DNA of 64,000 bases from an uncultured bacterium (GCA_903825105.1 CAIJZI010000008.1:8401-72400), one strand, 5' to 3'. Positions 1,985 through 63,640 are shown, counted from the first letter of the stretch. Program-made: numbers and translations. Notes: generated by a model not told the origin, from the sequence alone.

Positions 1985-2813
1985 TACTGGCGCTCGCTCG
2001 CAAACCAAAAAGAGAGCGCTCCGGCCGCTTGACCAATTCAACTCTCTTTTTGGCTTGCAAGCTTCGCGCCCAAAAAAGAGCTTGGGACAAAACTTTTTAA
2101 TGCACGCACGCATCGCGAATAGGATCGCCGGCGCGGCGGAGCTCGCGCCGGAGTCGGTGGTATTTGAAATTGGTCCTGGCACAGGAATGCTCACACACGA
2201 GCTTCTCAAAATGACAGGGAAAGTTATCGCTCTCGAAGCCGATCAAGAACTTTTTGAAAAATTAAAAATTGATTTTGATACTGAAATAAAAGAAGGGAAA
2301 CTCGAATTACTGCACGGCGACATTCGCACTTTTGAAATTTCGTCACTTCCAAAAAATTATAAACTGGTCGCGAATATTCCGTATTATCTGACCGGAGAAA
2401 TTTTTAGAATGTTTCTCGAGTCACAGAATCAACCAATCTCTATGACGCTTCTGGTACAAAAAGAAGTTGCAGAAAGAATCGCACGAAGCAAGAAGGAGTC
2501 CATTTTATCTATTTCAGTAAAAGCATTTGGAACGCCCAAATATGAATTCACCGTCCCGCGTGGCGCTTTCAGACCGGCGCCAAAAGTTGATTCAGCTGTG
2601 CTCACGATTTGTGACATCTCGCGTAAGAATTTTTCTTCAAAAAAAGATGAACAATTATTTTTTGAGCTCGTTCACGCAGGCTTCGCTCACAAAAGAAAAT
2701 TCGTATTAAAGAATTTAGTCGAGGCAGGATTCCAAATAGGGAATACGGGAGAAATAAAAGAAAAAGCTCGAGCTGAAGATCTCCAATTATCAGATTGGCT
2801 CGGGCTAATTTAA
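1953..2813 (+). CDS. rsmA: 16S rRNA (adenine1518/1519-N6)-dimethyltransferase KsgA/RsmA
   Basis: SLGQNFL...EIGPGTGMLT SAM-binding motifs and NIPY motif; N-terminal about 35 aa are atypical and overlap uvrD by 32 nt; an in-frame TTG at 2055 is an alternative start. Confidence 0.8.
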   Translation: MMKLMNQSSINTGARSQTKKRALRPLDQFNSLFGLQASRPKKSLGQNFLMHARIANRIAGAAELAPESVVFEIGPGTGMLTHELLKMTGKVIALEADQELFEKLKIDFDTEIKEGKLELLHGDIRTFEISSLPKNYKLVANIPYYLTGEIFRMFLESQNQPISMTLLVQKEVAERIARSKKESILSISVKAFGTPKYEFTVPRGAFRPAPKVDSAVLTICDISRKNFSSKKDEQLFFELVHAGFAHKRKFVLKNLVEAGFQIGNTGEIKEKARAEDLQLSDWLGLI

Positions 2814-3257
2814 AAAGACGATACGAAAGGCGTCATCAACCCATAAGAAGGTACCGGTGTACAAAAAGGCAACATAAGGCAAACGCCAAACACTGGGATT
2901 ATCCCCGGAATATATTTACCCATTATGTATGTTGCGGTCGGCACATTGTACATAGGGTAAAGTTGAGAATAGGGTCTGTATATTAATAACAAAGGCACGG
3001 ATGGCGGTATTGGCATTATGGTAAGTAACCAAGTCTGGCTACAAGTACAATATGTTGCGTTTGTTCTAATCCCTGAAAAAGGGATTCCTTTATCTAAATT
3101 TACAGCAAATGCTCTCGTGGGGAGTATTAGATTAGAAATTAAAAATATAATTAGTGTAAAAAACAGGAATCGAGTATGCATATTTATATAGTATCACCTG
3201 TTGGTGTAGATAACTGCCTCATTTACACTCATTACTGGTATACTTTATAGCGATACC

Positions 3258-4295
3258 ATGGGAAGAATTATAAAAAATTGGCCCATAACTATTGCAACGC
3301 TATTTTCGCTGTTTTTAATTGTCGGTGCCTTTATTCTCGCGCGCGACGCGATTTCGCCTTCAGTCGTTCAAGCATCGACAGAAACCGCTTTGTTGAAGGC
3401 AATAGCGACAAAAGATTCTACGGGTGACGGCTTGCCAGATTGGGAAAAGTCTTTGTATGGCATTCCGCTTAATGCGACAACTACCGATTATTTTAATCTT
3501 GGGATGACAGACGGCGAAGCTGTCGCGAGAGGGCTTATTGTCCCAAGGGCGATTGCTGATATTAAAGTCGCTGCCTCGCCAACAACCTCGTATGATTTAA
3601 ATGATGATTCTCTGCCACCAGCACCAGCTGATGATACGCTCACAGCCGCATTCGCGAAGAATTTTATGACGCTTTATCTTTCTGCAAAAGAACAGAATGG
3701 TGGAGCAGACCTTTCTGAAAGTGATATAGCCAATCTTTCAAAACAAGTGATGGATTCTCTCACTTCATCTATCTCTGTTGCCCCTGACTTTAAGTCAGCA
3801 AAAGATATAAAAGTTTCAGGGTCTGGTGCGGATGCGCTCAAAGCCTTTGCAGTAAGTGCAGAAGCTGTCTTCGCAGCTAATCAGAGTAGTGCCACGACAA
3901 GCGAATTATTCTATCTACAAAATGTGGTTCAAAATAACGATAATTCAGCCATTCCGTATCTCATTTCTCTCGCGAAATCTTATAGAAATAACGCAGTCGG
4001 GCTCTCGACACTGCTTGTGCCACAAGAGCTAGCTTCTGATGATCTCGCTATTGTGAATGCATTGATGCGAATAAGTGGAATCACGAGCGATTTTGCCCGC
4101 GTGAATGACGATCCTCTCGCGGCGATGCTCGCTCTTAATCAGTATCCAGGCGCAGTGTTAAATCTTAAAAATGCTTTTACAAATATAGGAAATATCTATA
4201 AAACAGCGGGTATTTCTCTTAAGGCGGGCACACCCGGCGCGTCATTTGTAAATGTGATTGGTAAAGTTAATGCAAAGCAGCAAGAAAAGATATGA
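3258..4295 (+). CDS. hypothetical signal-anchored extracytoplasmic protein (345 aa) with DSTGDGLPDWEK thrombospondin-type-3-like Ca-binding motif
   Basis: N-terminal TM helix WPITIATLFSLFLIVGAFILA, then Ala/Ser/Thr-rich extracellular region; first gene of an operon-like run with overlapping stop/start codons. Confidence 0.55.
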   Translation: MGRIIKNWPITIATLFSLFLIVGAFILARDAISPSVVQASTETALLKAIATKDSTGDGLPDWEKSLYGIPLNATTTDYFNLGMTDGEAVARGLIVPRAIADIKVAASPTTSYDLNDDSLPPAPADDTLTAAFAKNFMTLYLSAKEQNGGADLSESDIANLSKQVMDSLTSSISVAPDFKSAKDIKVSGSGADALKAFAVSAEAVFAANQSSATTSELFYLQNVVQNNDNSAIPYLISLAKSYRNNAVGLSTLLVPQELASDDLAIVNALMRISGITSDFARVNDDPLAAMLALNQYPGAVLNLKNAFTNIGNIYKTAGISLKAGTPGASFVNVIGKVNAKQQEKI

Positions 4296-6094
4296 AAAAA
4301 CAACTTAAAAGGGACATTTTGATAGCATCAACAGCGTTCACATTTTTTGTCGCGTCATCAGTATTTTTTATGTACCCACAAAAGGTTAGGGCGGGGGGAA
4401 TCCCTGTTTACGATCCTCTTAATCACATCGTAAATGTCATTACTTCTATCGCTGCGCCAATCACTTCAGCGTCTACACTGTTGTCCCAAATCAACTCCTA
4501 TGTTCTTCAGCCAATCGCGCTTACCTTGTCTGGGAATATATTGAAGTCGATGACGGCGAGCGCGACTTCATTTGTCAACGGGAAGAGTAATGGCACCGGT
4601 ATGCCGCAGTTTGTCACCAGTCTCCAAAACCAGTTACAGAAGACGGGAGATGTGCAGGCGCTTGCCTTCTTTTCGAATCTGAAAAATTCTAATTCACCAT
4701 TCGCGGCCTCAATCACCTCTTCTTTGAAAAATAAGTATCTCGAGAGTACCAGTCTTGCCGGGTTCTTCTCTGCGAATCAGTGCACGCTTTCTAAATCTTC
4801 TAAAAACATAAACTCTTTTCTCGCGGGTAATTGGTCTCAAGGAGGTGTCGGTGCGTGGCTCTCTCTCACGACACAAGATCAAAACAATCCCTACACGCTC
4901 TATGAAAAGGCACAGAACCAGCTCGCTTCTGTGGTAAACGCTGCACAAACAGAGAAGACCACACAGCTTAACTGGGGGCAGGGAATGCTCTCATGGTGTG
5001 GAAATGTATCGAGCTCGAGCTCTGGCTCTACGGGTGGTTCTGTGGATCCAACTTCAAGCACAGTAGACACACAAATAGACATGACTTGTTCTAATAACCA
5101 ACAGTGTCCAGGAGTTCTCGTGTGTATTTCTGGTAAATGTATAGACGATCCATTGACTACAACTTCAAGCACAATAGATACGCAAATAAACAATATAAGT
5201 ACAAAAAATCTAGATTTAAGCAATGTTAAAAACGACATCAATTCTGCTGCCTCCGCAAAATCCTTAAGCGCAGGGGACCCGTGTACCAAGAAAGATGGCT
5301 CCCCGGGCCAAATAAAAACGCCAGGCTCGGTTATTTCAGGCGCTCTTGGCAAAGCGCTCGGCGTCGAGCAGGATAAGCTCGCTCAACTAGGTAGTGCAGG
5401 CACAGAAATAAATAAACTTATGTCGAGTGTCGGGGATGTGCTGAAGTCGATGTCTATAATGACGAGTGTCGTCAACGGAGCTACTGGCGGGCTTCTTGGC
5501 GTTACCAATACCTCTGCTACCGACAGAACCTCTGAATTCTCGCAGTATGATTCAAGTGGATTCTTGGGCGCAACAGCCACCACATCAACAAAAAGTACTG
5601 ATAGCTTCGCTGTCTCTCCTTCTGTAATGACGAGTAACATCGCGCGGTATCAGGCGGCATGGAACACTATCAGCACAGCGGCGAACACTGCATCCACAAC
5701 AGTGGCGAGCCTTTTAAACACTTGTGCATCAAGCGCGAGCGAAGCACAGACCGCGCTCGATACAGAAATCGCTCCCGTTTTGAAACATGCTGCCCAAGCA
5801 ACGGTGAATATTTCACAAGCGAATGACCTACTACAGCAGATCCAAATTGATTTAGAAGACAATTCTTCTGGCACAGCATATACCAGTGATATGGTGACGC
5901 TTCAGACGACACCGCCGACGAGTGCGGATGTTTCGAATGCAGAACAAAATGCTCAAATTACAGAGTTCGCGACAACAGCAGACCCTAATTCGACCAATTC
6001 TCTCACTGTTTCTGGGGCGTCAATCCTCGACCAAATGATTCTTCTCACAACGAATGCCAACGCGCTCAAGGCCTCCTGCGGTTCTGGTATATGA
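4292..6094 (+). CDS. hypothetical secreted protein (600 aa); mature N-terminus GGIPVYDP (TrbJ/VirB5-like), two copies of a Cys-rich C-x6-C-x5-C-x3-C module, S/T-rich
   Basis: N-terminal TM/signal; IPVxD start followed by helical segments; TCSNNQQCPGVLVCISGKC module; start codon overlaps the upstream gene's stop. Confidence 0.6.
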   Translation: MKKQLKRDILIASTAFTFFVASSVFFMYPQKVRAGGIPVYDPLNHIVNVITSIAAPITSASTLLSQINSYVLQPIALTLSGNILKSMTASATSFVNGKSNGTGMPQFVTSLQNQLQKTGDVQALAFFSNLKNSNSPFAASITSSLKNKYLESTSLAGFFSANQCTLSKSSKNINSFLAGNWSQGGVGAWLSLTTQDQNNPYTLYEKAQNQLASVVNAAQTEKTTQLNWGQGMLSWCGNVSSSSSGSTGGSVDPTSSTVDTQIDMTCSNNQQCPGVLVCISGKCIDDPLTTTSSTIDTQINNISTKNLDLSNVKNDINSAASAKSLSAGDPCTKKDGSPGQIKTPGSVISGALGKALGVEQDKLAQLGSAGTEINKLMSSVGDVLKSMSIMTSVVNGATGGLLGVTNTSATDRTSEFSQYDSSGFLGATATTSTKSTDSFAVSPSVMTSNIARYQAAWNTISTAANTASTTVASLLNTCASSASEAQTALDTEIAPVLKHAAQATVNISQANDLLQQIQIDLEDNSSGTAYTSDMVTLQTTPPTSADVSNAEQNAQITEFATTADPNSTNSLTVSGASILDQMILLTTNANALKASCGSGI

Positions 6095-8829
6095 TTATGA
6101 AAAAAATTCTCACGCTTTCATTCTTCGCTCTCGCACTATCTATTTTTGTATTTACATCTGCTGGTCACGCTCCGAGCGTGCATGCGCAAGCTGTTTGCAA
6201 GATAAATGCAGATTGTGCTACAGACTTCGTCTGTGCTTCAGGTACTTGTGTCCCACTATCAACAACTTCATCAATAATAGATACACAAATAGATACAACT
6301 TGTGCGAATGACCAGCAGTGCCCCGCAGGTCTTGTTTGTACCTCAGGTAAATGTGTAGACTCTGGCACTGACTCTGGCACTGCCGCGGCTTCTGCGAAGC
6401 CTGCCAGCGATGCGGGCACGAAGAACCCGACAAGTAATTTGCCACAGCTGCAAGACACCAGCGGAGCTCTCGGCTCGGTGATGAAGTACATAATGACCAT
6501 ATTCGCGTGGCTTCTCGGTATCGCTGCGATCACGCTCGATAATGCGGTCTACTACACCGTCATCACGATGGGGAATTATGTAAGCAATTTAAATGCCATC
6601 GGAGTAACTTGGCGCATACTGCGAGACATTGGCAACATTGCCTTCATCTTTGGATTTTTGATGATCGGTATCAACATCATTTTAGGTACCAACTTATACG
6701 GATGGGGACAAAAATTGATCTCGACGCTTCTTATCTCAGCGATTTGTCTGAACTTCTCGCTCTTCGCGACAGAGGCGATTATCGATGTGGGGAACTTATT
6801 CGCGACACAATTTTATACACAAATAAACGGTGGAGTGCCGGCACAGTCGACAGATCTTTTAAGCGCGAGCAATATTAATAATGAAGTCATTTCGAATAAA
6901 ATATTGTCCCAATTAGGGCTCGCGACTATTTATGGCAGGGCACTCACCAATACTGATGGATTCTTAGCGAATTCCACCGCGACAACGCTTGTCAGCTTTA
7001 TGAGCATTATCTTATTCCTTATCGCGGCGTTCGTGATGTTCTCGCTCGCTTTTATCCTTATCGCGCGGTTCGTTATTCTTATTTTTGTCATTATAGTTTC
7101 TCCTATTGCTGTAGCAGGGTTCGCTATACCTCCACTCGCCAAGCTTAAAGACAGTTGGATGAGTGCTCTCCTTGGGGAGACAATGACTGCGCCAGTACTC
7201 CTATTATTGTTGTATGTCGCTCTGGCTATTATCACGGATGCAAAATTTCTCGCTTTTGGTTCAGACAAGGCGGATTGGCTAGGCTTTGTAGAAAGTAGCG
7301 GTGGGGCAATGAATCTGACCGGCATGGCGGGGCTTATTCTCTCATTTATTGTAGCGATGGGGCTCCTGCTCGCTGTGGTTATGTATTCTAAAAAGCTCGG
7401 CGCCTTCGGCGCGAGCTGGGCATCGAAAACAGCGGGGAAGTTAACCTTCGGCGCGACCGCCTGGGGGATGCGACAAACAGCCGGAAGAGCATCACAACGA
7501 TTGTCGAATTATACTCGTGCGAATTTTGGAGGCAGTGTTCTCGGGAGAATTACTGCTGGTGGTTTCGACAAGGTCGCGGCGGGGAGTTTCGATGTACGCG
7601 GGTCGAATGCGTGGATTTCTGGGACGAAGGCTCTTGGCGGCGTTGAGGCTGGGGAAGCACAGAAGGGTGGCTTTAAAGCAATGCGGGATAATACAGTTAA
7701 GGAACACGAAGCATATCTTAAGACGGTCACTTCAGCGATTGAAGATAAGAATCTTAAAAAGACAACGGCAGCTGCGCAGGCACGAGATGTTGCTGAGGCA
7801 GCAGCAGCAAAAGAATTCAAAGAAGTAGAAGAACCGATAAAAGATATTAATAAAAAGATTACCGCAAACAATGAAGAGATTGGGAAATTAGAGAAAGCAG
7901 AAAAAGGTCTAGCCCCTCTCGTCGAAACGCAAAAGAAGGCAAGTGAAAGTTTCCAAAAAGCTGACGCAAAATTTGTACAAGCAACAGCAGAAAAAGAACA
8001 AAAAGAAAAAGAACAAGCAACGGCGCAAGAACAAAAAGCTGCTATTGAGGCTGAGCAAAATACGGCAGAAACAGAAGTCGAGAAGAAAAAGGCAGAAGTC
8101 GCGAGCTTGTTAGAAGCCAAAGAACGAGAAGAAAAATTCTCTCCAAACGGCAGAATGACCGAAGAAACTGAAAAGAATCTCGCGATTGCCCAGCAGAATC
8201 TCGCGGCTTCTCAAGCAGCTCTCACTGAAGCGGATGGTCGCCTAGAAAAAGCAGCAAAAGAGCTTGATGAAAAGGAAAAGGCTACAACAATAGCGGCTGG
8301 TAATCATAAAACAGCAAGAGAAACCAGAGAATCCGCTGGAGAAAGCCTTCGTGGAGTCACGGAAAAAGTTTCGAAAGAAGAGGAAAAACATAAACTCGGG
8401 ACACTCGACCAAGTTACTGGAAAATTAGCTACTTCTAAGGAAGATCTCGAAGCAAATAAAGGCGAATTACAAAAGAAGTCGAAGACACTCAATGAATTAA
8501 AAGGAAAGCTCAAAGATGCTGTCGACGCAGAAAAGAAACTGAGCGGCGAAATATCGGAAAAGCAAAAAAAGGCACAAGAAGGATATGCCAGCAGTATTTC
8601 TGGAGTCATGGGTCTCGCGTATGGTCCTGGAGGCGGCATTGCTGCTAAGAAGATAATTAAAGGAGCGATTAAAAAAGATAATAGTCTTGATAAGATTAAG
8701 AAGTTATTGGGAGAAAAAAGCGAAGATGATATGCTCGCTGATGCATACAAAGCGCAGTTAAAAAAACAAGTTGAAGAAGAAGCTGAAAAGACAGCAAAAT
8801 CAGCAGAACCGGCCGCACCAACTGCTTAG
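6091..8829 (+). CDS. large polytopic membrane protein (912 aa) with N-terminal Cys-rich module, at least 6 TM helices and a 450-aa KEKE-rich cytoplasmic coiled-coil tail; VirB6/TrbL-like architecture
   Basis: Signal peptide; TCANDQQCPAGLVCTSGKC module homologous to the upstream gene's; hydrophobic block about aa 130-430; long E/K-rich coiled coil. Confidence 0.65.
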   Translation: MIMKKILTLSFFALALSIFVFTSAGHAPSVHAQAVCKINADCATDFVCASGTCVPLSTTSSIIDTQIDTTCANDQQCPAGLVCTSGKCVDSGTDSGTAAASAKPASDAGTKNPTSNLPQLQDTSGALGSVMKYIMTIFAWLLGIAAITLDNAVYYTVITMGNYVSNLNAIGVTWRILRDIGNIAFIFGFLMIGINIILGTNLYGWGQKLISTLLISAICLNFSLFATEAIIDVGNLFATQFYTQINGGVPAQSTDLLSASNINNEVISNKILSQLGLATIYGRALTNTDGFLANSTATTLVSFMSIILFLIAAFVMFSLAFILIARFVILIFVIIVSPIAVAGFAIPPLAKLKDSWMSALLGETMTAPVLLLLLYVALAIITDAKFLAFGSDKADWLGFVESSGGAMNLTGMAGLILSFIVAMGLLLAVVMYSKKLGAFGASWASKTAGKLTFGATAWGMRQTAGRASQRLSNYTRANFGGSVLGRITAGGFDKVAAGSFDVRGSNAWISGTKALGGVEAGEAQKGGFKAMRDNTVKEHEAYLKTVTSAIEDKNLKKTTAAAQARDVAEAAAAKEFKEVEEPIKDINKKITANNEEIGKLEKAEKGLAPLVETQKKASESFQKADAKFVQATAEKEQKEKEQATAQEQKAAIEAEQNTAETEVEKKKAEVASLLEAKEREEKFSPNGRMTEETEKNLAIAQQNLAASQAALTEADGRLEKAAKELDEKEKATTIAAGNHKTARETRESAGESLRGVTEKVSKEEEKHKLGTLDQVTGKLATSKEDLEANKGELQKKSKTLNELKGKLKDAVDAEKKLSGEISEKQKKAQEGYASSISGVMGLAYGPGGGIAAKKIIKGAIKKDNSLDKIKKLLGEKSEDDMLADAYKAQLKKQVEEEAEKTAKSAEPAAPTA

Positions 8830-8862
8830 GCGACGCCGCCAGCACCATAAAATTTAATCACT

Positions 8863-9624
8863 ATGGACACACAAGAACCAACACTCGATGAAAGTATCCA
8901 GCAGGTGATGCAGACCTTGCCGCCCGTGATTCGTGATTATCTTTCAGCAGGGAAGTACACAGAGGTTGCGAAAGGTTTAATCACGAAATATGGGCTCCAT
9001 GTCGATCAGGGAGGCATTCTCGAACGCGAGATAATGTTGCTTTTGATGGGTATCGAGAACCCAACAGAATTTATAAATGCGCTTATTGAAGAGGCGAAGC
9101 TCGATGCGAAGGTTGTAGAGAACATTGTGAAGGATGTGAATGACCAAATCTTCGCTCCACTTAAAGAAGCAGAGATGAAGAGCGACACTACCGAGCCAGA
9201 GCCAAGTCATTTTCATTTAGAAAATAAAATTCCTCATCCAGTTCCTGCGCCAGTGAGAAATGAGATTCACCACCCGCCACTCGGGCCCGCGGCAGCCGTC
9301 ACGGCGCCAGCTCCTGCCATTACTCCTGTTGAAGCGCCCAAACTCTTGGCGGAGGAGAAGCTGCTTGAAGACCATGAAGAGCCGCATCTAGATGTAAGGG
9401 ATAAGGTGCAAGCCCCGACGCAAGAAGTCGTGGCCCCGACCGGGAGCGTCGGGGGTATAAACTTAATACCCTTTCCGCCGAAAAAGATTGTGCCACCACC
9501 CCATCCTTTGCCAGAGGCTACGGAGGGCACAGCAGAAAAACCAATTTCTCCGACTCCACCTAAAGTCCCGCCACCTCCAGTCAAACCGTATTCAGTTGAT
9601 CCTTATCGCGAACCGATCGAATAA
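8863..9624 (+). CDS. hypothetical protein with globular N-domain and proline-rich C-terminal half
   Basis: ORF with in-phase codon usage; PxP-rich low-complexity C-terminus; last gene of the envelope cluster. Confidence 0.5.
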   Translation: MDTQEPTLDESIQQVMQTLPPVIRDYLSAGKYTEVAKGLITKYGLHVDQGGILEREIMLLLMGIENPTEFINALIEEAKLDAKVVENIVKDVNDQIFAPLKEAEMKSDTTEPEPSHFHLENKIPHPVPAPVRNEIHHPPLGPAAAVTAPAPAITPVEAPKLLAEEKLLEDHEEPHLDVRDKVQAPTQEVVAPTGSVGGINLIPFPPKKIVPPPHPLPEATEGTAEKPISPTPPKVPPPPVKPYSVDPYREPIE

Positions 9625-39402: not shown

Positions 39403-40599
39403 ATGAAAAAATACATTGTGAGTGCAGTTTTGGCATTCGTTCTCGTCTTGCCAGCCTTTGTCCCACAGGTAAAAGCGGCAGAACTCTCTTCAGCACAAAT
39501 AAACGCTGTTATATCGCTTCTTCAGTCGTTCGGCGTTGATCAGGCGACCATAAATAGCGTGCAGTCTGCGCTTGGTGGCACTTCAACTGGCACAACGAAT
39601 TCCTGCTACAACTTTTCAACGAATCTCGGGATGGGGATGAATGGCTCTGCTGTCACAGCGCTTCAAAACGCGCTTAAAAATGATGGCGAGTCGGTCACGG
39701 TTACTGGCATTTATGATGAACAAACTGCCTCCGCAGTCACAGGCTTTCAACAGAAATACGCGAGCGACATTCTCACACCGAACGGTCTTCAATACGGCAC
39801 CGGCTATGTAGGTGTTTCTACACGAGCGAAATTGAATTCTCTTTGTACTGGTACGGTGGTTATAACTCCAACAGTTCCAACTCTCCCAACAAAAATTTGC
39901 CCAGTGTGGGGATGCACACCGCCAACTCCGACACCAATCCAGATGCCGGTAACTGCGGCTACAATTCCAACGATTACTTCGATTTCCCCAACATCAGGTC
40001 CAATGGGAACCGTAATAATTATTAACGGCTCTGGTTTTCTTAATAATGATGTTGTGAATTTCAACGGAATGGCAAATCAAGAAAGCAACATCGCTAATAT
40101 TCAGGGGACTATGTTGCACACGACTATTGGGAATTCAATAACGGCCGGGACATATAATGTGACCGTTACTTCGCCAAGTGGTCAGACGAGTAATGCTGGT
40201 ACATTTACTGTAACTGGTGTGCCAATCATTTCCTCAATTTCTCCTACAACCGGAACAGTTGGCACAACTGTTACTGTTTCAGGCTCAGGATTCGCTCCGA
40301 AAGGCAATGTTGTGGTGTTAAACGGATTGGAAGTCGTCGTTGCAAATTCATCTGATGGAAACACTCTAACATTTACGATCCCACAAAAATGGTTGAGTCA
40401 ATGCAACTTTACCGGGACTGGCGCTGGAACTCAAATGAATTGCTTTCCATTTACCAATCAGTCAACTTCTTGGGTATTGCCAGGTAATTATGGCCAGACA
40501 CAATATACGTATCCGCTTAATGTGTTCGTGCCAAACGCCGGTTTCAGTAATAGCATTCCGTTCACGGTCACAAATGGATCAGCCACAACTTTCGGTTAA
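39403..40599 (+). CDS. secreted protein with peptidoglycan-binding domain and IPT/TIG repeats
   Basis: Signal peptide; PG_binding_1-like GSAVTALQNALKNDG...TGIYDEQTASAVTGFQ; ISPTSGPMGTVIIINGSGF and ISPTTGTVGTTVTVSGSGF. Confidence 0.65.
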   Translation: MKKYIVSAVLAFVLVLPAFVPQVKAAELSSAQINAVISLLQSFGVDQATINSVQSALGGTSTGTTNSCYNFSTNLGMGMNGSAVTALQNALKNDGESVTVTGIYDEQTASAVTGFQQKYASDILTPNGLQYGTGYVGVSTRAKLNSLCTGTVVITPTVPTLPTKICPVWGCTPPTPTPIQMPVTAATIPTITSISPTSGPMGTVIIINGSGFLNNDVVNFNGMANQESNIANIQGTMLHTTIGNSITAGTYNVTVTSPSGQTSNAGTFTVTGVPIISSISPTTGTVGTTVTVSGSGFAPKGNVVVLNGLEVVVANSSDGNTLTFTIPQKWLSQCNFTGTGAGTQMNCFPFTNQSTSWVLPGNYGQTQYTYPLNVFVPNAGFSNSIPFTVTNGSATTFG

Positions 40600-60004: not shown

Positions 60005-60367
60005 ATGAAATCTAATGCTGTCATTGTCATTATTGCGGTTCTCGCCATCTCTGCTGGCGCGTATTGGTATTTTTTCACTGGCACTGGCAATCAACAGCCA
60101 CTGACCGGGGTTGGTACATCTATAAATATCGCGCAAGCACAATTCCAAACACTTCTCGGCGAACTTCAGCCAATTTCTTTTGATCCAAGCATTTTTTCTG
60201 ATGCGCGATTTAATGTTCTAACAGATCTTACAACAACAGTTTCTCCAGAAACAACAGGTCGACTCGATCCTTTTTCAATCGCTTCTAATCCAAGTCAAGG
60301 TTCTTCCGGTTCTGTTTCTACCGCGAGCTCCACAGCGAGCTCAACCACAAAAGTAATTAAAAAGTAA
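60005..60367 (+). CDS. small membrane-anchored S/T-rich protein (PilP-like position)
   Basis: N-terminal TM; operon position only. Confidence 0.35.
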   Translation: MKSNAVIVIIAVLAISAGAYWYFFTGTGNQQPLTGVGTSINIAQAQFQTLLGELQPISFDPSIFSDARFNVLTDLTTTVSPETTGRLDPFSIASNPSQGSSGSVSTASSTASSTTKVIKK

Positions 60368-62154
60368 TGAATTTCTTAGGATTTATTGTTGACAAAGGCC
60401 TCATCACCGCAATTGACCGCGCGAAGGTTGAAGCTGAACTAGCGAAAAAGCGCCCTCTTTCTGAAGTGCTTGCTGAGCATGGCGTCTCGCTCGAGAGCGC
60501 GCTCAAACAAGCGGGGGAAGAATACAATATTCCCGTTCGTATTCTCGGAGATCCTCCTGCTGAACAAAATGTGTTTAATTATGTTCCGATTGATTCGGCA
60601 CAGCATTATGGATTCGTTCCGCTTAGTATGAAAGATGGCGCGCTCGAAGTCGGAATGACCGATCCTGATAACATCGAAGCTTTCGATGCACTCCAATTCA
60701 TCTCGGGGAAGATTGGCATACCGTATAAGATTTTTCTCATTACAAAACAAGATTTCGATAGAGTCATTGAGTCGTATAAAAATATTTCTGGCGAAGTTGG
60801 GGAAGCTCTTTCAGAATATGAAAACACATCAAAATCTCCCTCTGCCGCGCACGGTTCTATGCATAAAGAAGCTGCTCCCGAAGAGAATTCAAATCTTAAT
60901 GATGAAGCCATAACGCTTACGGGCGCGCGCGAATCGTTAAAAGAAGACGCACCCGTTACCAAGATTGTTTCGACTATATTGCGCTATGCCATCGAAGGTC
61001 ACTCGTCAGATATTCATATAGAATCTTCCTCGACGAGAACGCGCGTTCGTTTCCGTATGGACGGCGAGCTCCACACTTCACTTGAATTGCCAACGAAGGT
61101 GCATGACGCGGTTGTTGCGCGCGTTAAGATTCTAGCGAAACTTCGTCTCGACGAAAAGCGTAAGCCACAAGACGGTCGATTTTCTGCGACCATAGAAAAG
61201 CGTCGAATCGACTTCCGTGTCTCGACATTCCCAACTGAATATGGCGAAAAGGTGGTGATGCGTATTCTCGATCAGTCGGCGGCGACTGCGACGCTCGAGT
61301 CGATCGGATTTTCCGCAGAACAGCTCGTTGAGATCAGAGACATGATGAAAGTTCCGTACGGGATTATCCTCATCGCTGGGCCAACCGGTTCTGGAAAGTC
61401 GACAACTTTGTTCGGTATGCTTTCTGAAGTTGACCGCGAAACTGAAAATGTGGTGTCGCTTGAAGATCCTATCGAATATGAAATCCCCGGCGTTTCCCAG
61501 AGCCAGGTTCGTCCAGAAATCGGCTACACCTTCGCGAACGGTCTCCGTTCAATCCTGCGTCAAGACCCTGATGTCATTATGGTTGGAGAAATTCGTGATA
61601 ATGAAACTGCGGTGCTCGCGGTGCAGGCTGCGCTTACGGGGCACCTCGTCTTTTCAACGATTCACACCAACACCGCCACAGGCGCGATACCGCGTCTTGT
61701 TGATATGGGCGTTGACCCATTCCTTATTGCACCGACATTGACTGCAGTTATTGGGCAAAGACTCGTAAGAAAGCTTGGAGAAGGGGCGGGGAAGCCGTTC
61801 CCGATTACGGACAGCATCAAAGCTTTTCTCGATAGACAATTTGCGGATCTACCGAAGGAATTTCAGAAAAATTTTCCTCCATTCAATCAGTTTTATCATG
61901 CGACTCCGACAGCAGAATGTCCAAGTGGCACCCGTGGCCGCACGGGAGCTTTTGAAATCCTTAGGATGAACAAAAAAATCGAAGAAGTTATTTTGAAAGA
62001 GCCTGTTGAAGAGAAGATTTATACCGCAGCACGCGCCGGCGGGATGCTCACGATGCGTGAAGACGCGATTATGAAAGCACTCGCAGGCGTCATTTCTTTT
62101 GAAGAAATCAATACGCTTGGAGGAGAGCTCTTTGTAGAAGACGAAAAAGACTAA
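60367..62154 (+). CDS. pilB: type IV pilus assembly ATPase PilB/GspE family
   Basis: Walker A GPTGSGKST; Asp box; His box; N-terminal GSPII_E_N-like domain. Confidence 0.9.
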   Translation: MNFLGFIVDKGLITAIDRAKVEAELAKKRPLSEVLAEHGVSLESALKQAGEEYNIPVRILGDPPAEQNVFNYVPIDSAQHYGFVPLSMKDGALEVGMTDPDNIEAFDALQFISGKIGIPYKIFLITKQDFDRVIESYKNISGEVGEALSEYENTSKSPSAAHGSMHKEAAPEENSNLNDEAITLTGARESLKEDAPVTKIVSTILRYAIEGHSSDIHIESSSTRTRVRFRMDGELHTSLELPTKVHDAVVARVKILAKLRLDEKRKPQDGRFSATIEKRRIDFRVSTFPTEYGEKVVMRILDQSAATATLESIGFSAEQLVEIRDMMKVPYGIILIAGPTGSGKSTTLFGMLSEVDRETENVVSLEDPIEYEIPGVSQSQVRPEIGYTFANGLRSILRQDPDVIMVGEIRDNETAVLAVQAALTGHLVFSTIHTNTATGAIPRLVDMGVDPFLIAPTLTAVIGQRLVRKLGEGAGKPFPITDSIKAFLDRQFADLPKEFQKNFPPFNQFYHATPTAECPSGTRGRTGAFEILRMNKKIEEVILKEPVEEKIYTAARAGGMLTMREDAIMKALAGVISFEEINTLGGELFVEDEKD

Positions 62155-62176
62155 TTATTTATAGTATAATAAAACT

Positions 62177-62578
62177 ATGGCATACCGTATATATTTGATT
62201 GACGATGACAAGTTTCTTCTTGACCTTTATGCTGTTAAGTTTAAAAATGCAGGGCATGAAGTCACTGCCTTCGGTAGTGGTGAAGAGCTTTTGGCTACAC
62301 TGAGAAAGCCTGAGGTCGCTGCTCCAGACGCGATTCTTATAGATCTTATTATGCCGGGGATGGGCGGATTTGGAGCCCTTGAAGCAATACGAAAGGAAAA
62401 TCTAGCGAAGGGAACGAAAATAATCATTCTTTCAAATCAAGGTAAGGATGCGGATATTGAAAAAGCAAAACAATTTGCTGTTGATGGCTATATTATAAAA
62501 GCGTCGGCGATTCCTTCAGAAGTTTTAGCCGAGACATTAAATATTATTCATCCGGACTCAGCTGTGCCAAAAACATAA
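62177..62578 (+). CDS. standalone response-regulator receiver (PilH/PilG-like position)
   Basis: LIDDD...DLIMPGMGG...ILSN receiver motifs. Confidence 0.8.
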   Translation: MAYRIYLIDDDKFLLDLYAVKFKNAGHEVTAFGSGEELLATLRKPEVAAPDAILIDLIMPGMGGFGALEAIRKENLAKGTKIIILSNQGKDADIEKAKQFAVDGYIIKASAIPSEVLAETLNIIHPDSAVPKT

Positions 62579-62581
62579 TGT

Positions 62582-63640
62582 ATGGTTATAGATAAACGAC
62601 TCGAAGAACTTCTCGACCTGGTTATCGCTCAAGGCGGTTCGGATTTACATATTTGTGCAGGCGCGTCTCCTATGATCCGCATAGCGGGTACATTGATACC
62701 AATCACAAAATATTCAGCGCTCACGAGTGAAGAAACAGAAACGATGTTTAAAAGCATTGTGCCAGAAGATCGTTGGGATTTGTTTAGAGAACGGCAGAAC
62801 ATTGACCTTTCTTATGCGCATGGGAATTCACGGTTCAGAATAAATGGATTCCGCGTTCAAGGAACAACCGCTTTTGCTCTCCGTCTTGTTCCGCACGCTA
62901 TTAAAACATTTTCTGAACTTAATTTGCCATCCGTTCTTGAAGTCTTTACTCAGCGCAAGCAGGGTTTTTTCCTTGTCGTTGGTCCAGTTGGGCACGGCAA
63001 ATCAACTACGCTTGCCGCAATGATTGACTGTATTAATGATTCTCGTTCAGAACACATTCTCACCATCGAAGACCCTGTAGAATATGTTTTTACTCCAAAA
63101 AAATCGCTCATTCATCAACGCGAAGTTCATATAGATGTGCCCGATTTCCAAACCGCTCTCCAAGGAGCATTCCGAGAAGATGTTGATGTCATTATGGTCG
63201 GTGAGATGCGTGATTATGAGACTATTTCAAATGCAGTTACCGCGGCGGAGACAGGGCATCTGGTATTTTCAACACTGCACACCAACAACGCAGCGCAGAC
63301 GATCGATCGCATTATTGATATGTTCCCTGCGGAGCAACAAGCTCAGGTGCGCGTACAGCTCGCGGGTAGTCTCGCGGGCATCTTTTCGCAGCGCCTCGTT
63401 CCTCGTATTTCTGGCGGACTTATCCCTGCGTGTGAGCTTCTTATAAATAATAATGCGGTATCTACTCTTATCCGCGATGCACGCACGCACGAGATTGATA
63501 CGGTAATACAGACCTCTTCGCAAGAGGGGATGATTGATATGGATCGCTCGCTCGCTGATCTTATGAAGCGCGGGGAAGTGACGATCGAGCACGCGTATGA
63601 ACATGCGGTTAATCCAAAGACATTTGAACGCTACTTATAA
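62582..63640 (+). CDS. pilT: twitching-motility retraction ATPase PilT
   Basis: Walker A GPVGHGKST; 352 aa. Confidence 0.9.
   Translation: MVIDKRLEELLDLVIAQGGSDLHICAGASPMIRIAGTLIPITKYSALTSEETETMFKSIVPEDRWDLFRERQNIDLSYAHGNSRFRINGFRVQGTTAFALRLVPHAIKTFSELNLPSVLEVFTQRKQGFFLVVGPVGHGKSTTLAAMIDCINDSRSEHILTIEDPVEYVFTPKKSLIHQREVHIDVPDFQTALQGAFREDVDVIMVGEMRDYETISNAVTAAETGHLVFSTLHTNNAAQTIDRIIDMFPAEQQAQVRVQLAGSLAGIFSQRLVPRISGGLIPACELLINNNAVSTLIRDARTHEIDTVIQTSSQEGMIDMDRSLADLMKRGEVTIEHAYEHAVNPKTFERYL

Follow-up and report, generated by a model that had tools for sequence, protein, structure and literature searches.

Patescibacteria depend on other cells. A survey of type IV secretion systems (T4SS) in this phylum describes MPF_FATA-like systems with VirB6 homologs and variable arrays of VirB2 pilins, places KsgA/RsmA near the T4SS genes and proposes variation of surface components as a route to host adaptation (Quinonero-Coronel et al. 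2025, PMC12102498). In the one lineage tested, according to work cited in that survey, epibiotic growth is impossible without T4SS-like genes. The locus described here lies in a 64,000-nucleotide stretch of DNA from an uncultured bacterium (GCA_903825105.1 CAIJZI010000008.1:8401-72400; below, the window, with positions counted from its first letter). It comes from the chromosome of an ultra-small bacterium of the Patescibacteria, with a Paceibacteria/Kaiserbacteria-like genome. It contains a conserved, operon-like envelope cluster of Paceibacteria, with four genes encoding 345, 600, 912 and 253 amino acids. The second and third of these, here called genes A and B, carry the same element in variable, outward-facing parts of their products: a cassette of about 100 bases, coding for a linker and a four-cysteine module, which has been copied between the two genes. 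The survey does not describe the four-gene cluster, hot spots for cysteine modules or exchange of modules between genes, and targeted literature searches, including Parcubacteria with TrbL, returned nothing on the cluster, the hot spots or the exchange. The module type and domain shuffling were known already; the setting and its recurrence are new.

In a repeat search, nucleotides 5049–5146 of gene A match nucleotides 6263–6360 of gene B over 98 positions, without gaps and at 77% identity. Both copies are read in the same codon phase, and when their 34 codons are aligned, 76 of 102 nucleotides and 23 of 34 amino acids are identical. An earlier note on this DNA had proposed a module duplicated or shuffled between two adjacent envelope genes, with a nucleotide identity of about 75%, and both statements are borne out by these alignments. 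All four cysteines, the motifs QQCP, LVC and SGKC and the preceding IDTQID strand are common to the two copies. Since the cysteine framework and residues other than Ser and Thr are shared, the similarity is not the low-complexity artefact of Ser/Thr runs that the note had considered as a possible objection. The chance expectation of a 98-nucleotide match of this quality, counted over all offsets between A and B, is about 1e-16 (binomial). Nine codons differ by synonymous changes only and 11 by non-synonymous changes; the non-synonymous and synonymous divergences (dN and dS) are 0.22 and 0.75, and the resulting dN/dS of about 0.29 argues for purifying selection. The duplication had also been called recent, which a dS of about 0.75 and an identity of about 75% contradict. 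A contig obtained independently from a different sample (L081) carries the locus as well, at 99.97% identity, so that it is not an assembly artefact.

The order of the elements differs between the proteins. In A, a linker is followed by a module (Cys266, Cys272, Cys278 and Cys283) and by a second linker; in B, a first module (Cys36, Cys42, Cys48 and Cys53) is followed by a linker and a second module (Cys71, Cys77, Cys83 and Cys88). The cysteines are spaced C-x5-C-x5-C-x4-C in all three modules, not C-x6-C-x5-C-x3-C as first given, and this includes the upstream unit of B, which had been read as C-x5-C-x7-C-x5-C. The linkers form a family of three copies of about 39 nucleotides (5039–5077, 5150–5188 and 6253–6291), with about 77% pairwise identity. 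Of the degenerate second copy that had been placed in A, the linker is indeed present, at 77% identity to each of the other two; the module is not, because at most about five decayed codons follow, with TGT at the first cysteine position changed to AGT. In the AlphaFold2 (AF2) model, module 2 of B (predicted local distance difference test score, pLDDT, about 75) is a small sheet with a turn at SG, its strands being LVCT, KCVD and the IDTT with which the linker closes. The predicted packing of this last strand on the module would account for the joint movement of linker and module. Each module presumably contains two disulfides. No further copy of the cassette is present in any frame of the window, and a scan of Joint Genome Institute (JGI) metagenome contigs for [IV]DTQID[TM]T and C[AS]N[DN]QQCP gave 101 pattern matches, none of which was confirmed by tblastn. 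The residues AASAK, which follow both copies, were rejected as a boundary of the duplication, as every third codon position differs and there is no match at the DNA level. A cysteine-rich open reading frame of 85 codons (6054–6311, plus strand, in another frame), which overlaps the start of B, is an out-of-frame shadow of the cysteine-module region and not a gene.

Judged by its sequence, the module is a widespread four-cysteine repeat type, equivalent to a half-unit of DUF7107, Dickkopf_N, EB or DPY. Scanning the modules against Pfam and NCBIfam yielded sub-threshold matches to DUF7107, EB, Dickkopf_N and TIGR04201. DUF7107 (PF23416) matches residues 36–89 of B with positions 2–47 of the 48 in the model, at 23.8 bits (E = 5.9e-5) and below the cutoff of 24.6; this score is borderline, and it is lowered by the inserted linker. 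A reaches 15.2 bits against the same cutoff, and TIGR04201 (Myxo_Cys_RPT) gives 11.7 bits on residues 71–88 of B, below its cutoff of 25. The DUF7107 half-unit has the spacing C-x5-C-x5-C-x4-C, found in all three modules, and the consensus CP.G..C..G.C, which may be compared with protein P0242 (CTSDAQCPGTLICVDGEC); the C-terminal sequence of P0242, read by eye, is a MYXO-CTERM-like tail. A phmmer search with residues 30–100 of B returned 72 proteins at E ≤ 1e-3, most of them with 2–44 repeated stretches in tandem arrays, the best match being a Blastocystis protein of 4710 residues. Ten of the 72 were scanned and all have DUF7107, nine of them above the cutoff, with E-values from 1e-13 to 1e-37; these proteins also have overlapping Dickkopf_N, EB and DPY matches, and one carries an M10 protease domain. 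Among PDB sequences, nothing resembled the module beyond a cysteine stretch in entry 4r12 and low-density lipoprotein receptor repeats, both matched weakly (E ≥ 0.16), and a literature search found no papers on DUF7107. The module had previously been called knottin- or EGF-like (epidermal growth factor-like), an assignment that has to be given up. An inhibitor cystine knot needs six cysteines in three disulfides, and an EGF-like domain six cysteines with a C-x-C in about 35–40 residues; here each unit has four cysteines in 18 residues, without C-x-C and without an EGF match in Pfam.

The two segments that received the cassette are insertion hot spots, of which both length and content are specific to the lineage. 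The loop of A measures 12–18 residues in the closest homologs (P0122–P0130, about 50–64% identical overall) versus 95 here. In a set of 67 genomes, lengths of 16–132 residues are seen for the A loop and of 39–190 residues for the B ectodomain, between flanks that are invariant. The sites are filled with low-complexity sequence of Ser, Thr, Gly and Ala, with alanine-rich helical inserts, or with small cysteine modules of at least eight kinds. The cassette is absent from A in P0122–P0130, from B in P0003 and P0004, and from both in the nearest species representative (L001); L001, P0003 and P0004 are without any module in A as well as in B. The closest homolog of B, P0002, carries the same module type at its amino-terminus; the contigs of P0002 and of two further B homologs with this type (P0015 and P0076) end before the loop of A. 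In all 67 genomes the number of cysteines is even in the A loop and likewise in the B ectodomain, which argues for disulfides within the modules, outside the cell. Together with the signal peptides of both proteins, this agrees with the proposal that the copies are extracytoplasmic. Bacteria of the candidate phyla radiation encode MdbA-like/VKOR disulfide oxidoreductases (bioRxiv 10.1101/335083). The signal peptides of the A and B families end in the same P-x-AHA-(Q) motif. Elsewhere in the family, DUF7107-type modules are present in the A loop of L071 (four tandem copies with linkers, in the stretch 4423–6448), L017 (two copies), and L016 and L073 (one each); the L071 contig ends before B, and B of L017 and of L016 is without the module. 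Another solution at the same hot spot, in place of cysteine modules, is seen in a subgroup of nine loci (L008, L015, L019, L025, L030, L055, L059, L064 and L067), where the A loop consists of 80–130 Ala/Asn-rich and probably helical residues (AAYDxAYNAAI, AKAANAGN).

Sharing of a module between A and B recurs in other genomes. When A loops and B ectodomains were compared by Smith-Waterman alignment in all 67 × 67 genome combinations, four of the 67 same-genome pairs scored above every cross-genome comparison involving them: the window (137), L018 (103), L010 (82) and L026 (62). The 99th percentile of the cross-genome scores is 50, and the permutation p for four such same-genome pairs is 0.0019. 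The four genomes use four different modules, that of L018 being SCSDxNGNxGxMTxxGCxAN, that of L010 consisting of CxxGxxxxxGVCV hairpins and that of L026 being CxGGxxCxxxGxEDGxPxxAxC. Nucleotide identity in these three pairs is about 54%, lower than in the window, which makes the window the youngest case. Module types are also shared across genomes: A of L011 and B of L062 score 102, and the common B-type module CTxxGxxCTTADGSxGTC is present in A of L021.

According to its hydropathy, the product of gene B has a signal peptide, an ectodomain (residues 33–125), about seven to eight transmembrane helices (residues 126–438) and a Lys/Glu-rich coiled-coil tail (residues 560–912). Its 549 homologs all come from metagenome-assembled genomes of Patescibacteria (Kaiserbacteria, Paceibacterota and Minisyncoccota), and all are annotated as hypothetical. 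B of the window has no match to a TrbL-family model of Pfam at E ≤ 1. Its homologs come near the thresholds, with 24.8 versus 25.9 for TrbL and 26.6 versus 27 for TrbL_4, and four of 24 members match at E ≤ 0.01; TrbL, TrbL_4 and PF19590 are the only Pfam families that they match. The precomputed annotation of several homologs lists PF19590, PF04610 and PF19597. When the model of B (low confidence, pLDDT 62) is compared with the PDB by Foldseek, the best match is TrwI/VirB6 of the R388 stalk (7o3v_J, E = 0.015, template modelling score 0.46–0.50); TrwI/VirB6 is also matched in 8rt9_F and 8rtd_L, the E-values ranging from 0.015 to 0.1. A PDB sequence search with the profile of B returned coiled-coil noise only. 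From these near-threshold family matches and the modelled fold, B is plausibly VirB6/TrbL-like, and its earlier description as a channel or platform protein is plausible as well; the cluster is not claimed as part of a T4SS. The tail of B (7770–8830) is about 200 residues longer than in most homologs, which have about 700 residues in total, and holds short direct repeats of the AAAGAA type (families D1, D4 and D5), which suggests that it was expanded by slippage.

The product of gene A also has homologs only in metagenome-assembled genomes of Patescibacteria (197 proteins, all annotated as hypothetical). In their alignment, a cysteine framework of Cys164, Cys236, Cys331, Cys478 and Cys596 is conserved. 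The number of widely conserved cysteines is thus odd; since many homologs lack Cys164, this residue may either be unpaired or form a bond to another subunit. The AF2 model of A is helical, with a carboxy-terminal bundle of pLDDT > 90. No match to A was found in Pfam, by profile search of PDB sequences or in PHROGs, and Foldseek of the model gave nothing below E = 1. For A as a VirB5/TrbJ protein, Pfam, PDB sequences, hhalign and Foldseek give no support, and only the gene order and the helical content are alike. The role of tip protein assigned to A in the earlier note lacks support from the same four sources.

The cluster is preceded by pcrA (8–1984), rsmA (1953–2813) and a small open reading frame on the minus strand (2810–3181); the 253-residue gene is followed by rpsL, rpsG, fusA, tuf and the ribosomal protein operon. 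Between rsmA and rpsL, the order of the four genes is retained almost everywhere in 80 loci from GTDB species representatives, and the cluster is syntenic in about 75 Paceibacteria genomes. Stop and start codons overlap as ATGA at 4292–4295 and 6091–6094, so the 345-residue gene, A and B are tightly coupled, with translational coupling implied. Public gene calls begin B at Met3 (910 residues) and A at Met87 (514 residues). The coordinates of the genes, of the hypervariable segments and of the cassette elements are collected in the table.

Table. Genes, hypervariable segments and cassette elements of the locus (positions in the window)
Feature	Position	Strand	Evidence
Upstream partner gene, 345 aa, N-terminal membrane anchor	3258..4295	+	Open reading frame, synteny, hydropathy; stop overlaps start of A (ATGA)
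Gene A, 600 aa; product largely helical and secreted (signal peptide)	4292..6094	+	Open reading frame, homologs, alignment, AF2
Hypervariable loop of A between invariant C236 (SWC) and C331 (GDPC), 95 aa	4997..5284	+	Alignment of homologs
Linker copy 1 in A, PTSSTVDTQIDMT	5048..5086	+	Repeat search, codon alignment
Four-Cys module in A, CSNNQQCPGVLVCISGKC	5087..5140	+	Translation, repeat search, codon alignment
Second linker of A, PLTTTSSTIDTQIN; followed by a few decayed codons, without a Cys module	5150..5191	+	Repeat search
Gene B, 912 aa, plausibly VirB6/TrbL-like polytopic membrane protein	6091..8829	+	Open reading frame, hydropathy, Pfam of homologs, Foldseek
N-terminal ectodomain of B, aa 33–125, from signal-peptide cleavage site to first transmembrane helix; hypervariable in the family	6187..6465	+	Hydropathy, homologs
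First four-Cys module of B, CKINADCATDFVCASGTC, a copy of this type that has diverged	6196..6249	+	Sequence, Cys spacing
Linker in B, PLSTTSSIIDTQIDTT; last residues a predicted beta-strand packing on the module	6253..6300	+	Repeat search, AF2
Four-Cys module 2 in B, CANDQQCPAGLVCTSGKC; predicted beta-hairpin, pLDDT about 75	6301..6354	+	Repeat search, AF2
Downstream partner gene, 253 aa, cytoplasmic, Pro-rich C-terminus; synteny conserved	8863..9624	+	Open reading frame, synteny, hydropathy

The minus-strand open reading frame at 2810–3181 encodes 123 residues, with a signal peptide and a Pro-rich, hydrophobic carboxy-terminus. It matches only the carboxy-terminal part of a gene of about 330 codons, located on the minus strand at the same position in relatives and with a faint PG_binding_1 match in L083, and appears to be a shortened version of it. 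Elsewhere in the window, a protein of 398 residues (39403–40599) contains PG_binding_1 and two IPT/TIG domains and is probably exposed on the cell surface, while type IV pilus genes at the right end (60367–63640) encode a PilB-like ATPase (595 residues, T2SSE and MshEN domains) and a PilT-like ATPase (352 residues).

Taking these results together, it is rather probable that the hypervariable extracytoplasmic segments of the tightly coupled A/B pair owe their cassette, which is specific to the lineage, to in-frame copying from one gene to the other. The cassette would be made up of a short beta-strand linker (TSSxIDTQID) and a four-cysteine mini-domain of the DUF7107/Dickkopf_N/EB/DPY type, its recipient sites being the loop of A, which would be closed by the two invariant cysteines, and the ectodomain of B between signal peptide and first transmembrane helix. 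Such copying is likely to result from sporadic recombination, ectopic or illegitimate, between the two neighbours, whose variable segments accept insertions; the folded, disulfide-stabilised inserts would then be kept under purifying selection, as the dN/dS of about 0.29 suggests. B was probably the first to hold the module and hence the donor, because the module type is also found at the amino-terminus of its closest relative, P0002. As both segments are extracytoplasmic and the proteins are co-encoded and probably co-assembled, the modules would most plausibly be small disulfide-stabilised knobs on the exposed end of an A/B complex, contacting something outside the cell, for instance the host surface or the cell wall. 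Several observations weigh against this account. The AF2 models of both A and B have a low overall confidence (pLDDT 61–62). A comparison by hhalign of the B profile with TrwI of R388 is negative, and that of A with TrwJ of R388 gives a probability of 0.3%. No VirB4-like open reading frame is present in the window or in up to 10 kb upstream in the relative L083, which leaves the assignment of the cluster to a T4SS indirect. The check for other copies of the cassette covered only 64 kb of the genome. Finally, no module is shared in 63 of the 67 genomes and in 13 further contig-matched A/B pairs, and the presence of cysteine modules in A is not correlated with that in B (Fisher p = 0.27), so sharing is not required for function.

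Other explanations draw on the same data. It is unlikely that A and B each acquired the cassette independently from a third source, such as a surface protein with DUF7107 repeats in the same genome or in a donor. Such a source is conceivable in that the module type is very widespread and usually forms tandem arrays, that one type can be found in the A gene of L011 and in the B gene of L062, and that only 64 kb of this genome is visible; yet all frames of the window are free of further copies, the linker and module motifs were nowhere confirmed in the JGI contigs, and the copies in A and B are mutual best matches in all four genomes that share a module. There is a small probability that the same module was selected in both proteins, either for binding one external partner or for pairing during assembly. 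In the earlier note this appeared as a common partner or co-assembly. Sharing recurs above chance: there are at least four independent origins of sharing within a genome, involving four module types (p = 0.002), the copies are under purifying selection, and VirB5 and VirB6 of R388 form one stalk (PDB entry 7O3V). A common partner or co-assembly is speculation, and against it stand the many genomes without sharing, the absence of a correlation between modules in A and B, and the many genomes that lack any cysteine in one or both segments. A common site or ligand would fit the recurrence of sharing but is not proved by it.

The extreme turnover of length and content, which includes pure low-complexity inserts of Ser, Thr, Ala and Gly and helical alanine-rich ones, and the fact that the closest relatives manage without any module might also be explained if the variable segments were spacers that tolerate insertions and the modules came along by imprecise recombination, with stable folding as their only role. 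We consider this quite improbable, given that dN/dS is about 0.29, with all cysteines and turn residues kept at a dS of about 0.75, that cysteine counts are always even, and that the conserved flanks imply a maintained site. The chance that the similarity is accidental, a product of low complexity or an assembly artefact is negligible: the flanks are rich in Ser and Thr, but the expectation is about 1e-16, the cysteine framework and residues other than Ser and Thr are in common, copies that are only 75–77% identical are not collapsed reads, and a nearly identical locus was recovered from the second sample; these data already refute this option. Returning to the copying of a cassette between A and B, in a more far-reaching form of it the A loop and the B ectodomain would together make up the tip of a VirB6-type apparatus specific to Paceibacteria. 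This tip, exposed and stabilised by disulfides, would serve to recognise the host cell, and exchange and insertion of cassettes would diversify host range or help to evade immunity or phages; to this we give little credence.

At this locus, two hot spots in a conserved, VirB6-like pair of genes can be placed precisely and aligned; they are natural candidates for a host-contact surface and offer concrete targets for binding assays, for scans of population-genetic variation and for predicting the structure of the complex. A tip that exchanges cassettes, if real, would amount to a counterpart, built on cassettes, of pilin or antigenic variation in organisms with tiny genomes. If, on the other hand, the modules are tolerated filler, the locus would still illustrate cleanly how domains are shuffled over a short range, from one gene to its neighbour.

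When the locus is compared with described systems, B resembles VirB6/TrbL (TrwI of R388, PDB entries 7O3V and 8RT9) in being, by its hydropathy, polytopic in the membrane and in having TrwI/VirB6 as its best Foldseek match, and the encoding of a secreted helical protein, A, immediately upstream of B recalls virB5/trbJ. B differs from VirB6/TrbL by its cleavable signal peptide, its ectodomain with cysteine modules and its Lys/Glu coiled-coil tail of 350 residues, and neither B nor A has a sequence-profile match to TrwI or TrwJ, respectively. A, with 600 residues versus about 225 and no fold match, is unlike VirB5, and unlike T4SS loci there is no virB4, virB2, virB3 or virB8 near A and B. The modules share with DUF7107, the carboxy-terminal half of Dickkopf_N, EB, the DPY repeat of Dumpy and TIGR04201 the spacing C-x5-C-x5-C-x4-C and the consensus C-t-s/n-D-x-q-C-P-x-G-l-v-C-x-x-G-x-C-v. 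In contrast to the tandem arrays of DUF7107-type proteins, they are present here in one or two copies, with the lineage-specific TSSxIDTQID linker between, and their host is a T4SS-like membrane protein with its partner. The D-region of type IV pilins is, like the A loop, a variable segment bracketed by two conserved cysteines in a secreted surface protein; the two are not homologous, and the pairing of Cys236 with Cys331 in A is putative. The systems surveyed in PMC12102498 belong to the same phylum, have VirB6 homologs and, as at this locus, KsgA/RsmA in the neighbourhood; their variation comes from arrays of paralogous genes, unlike the insertion of cassettes into A and B.

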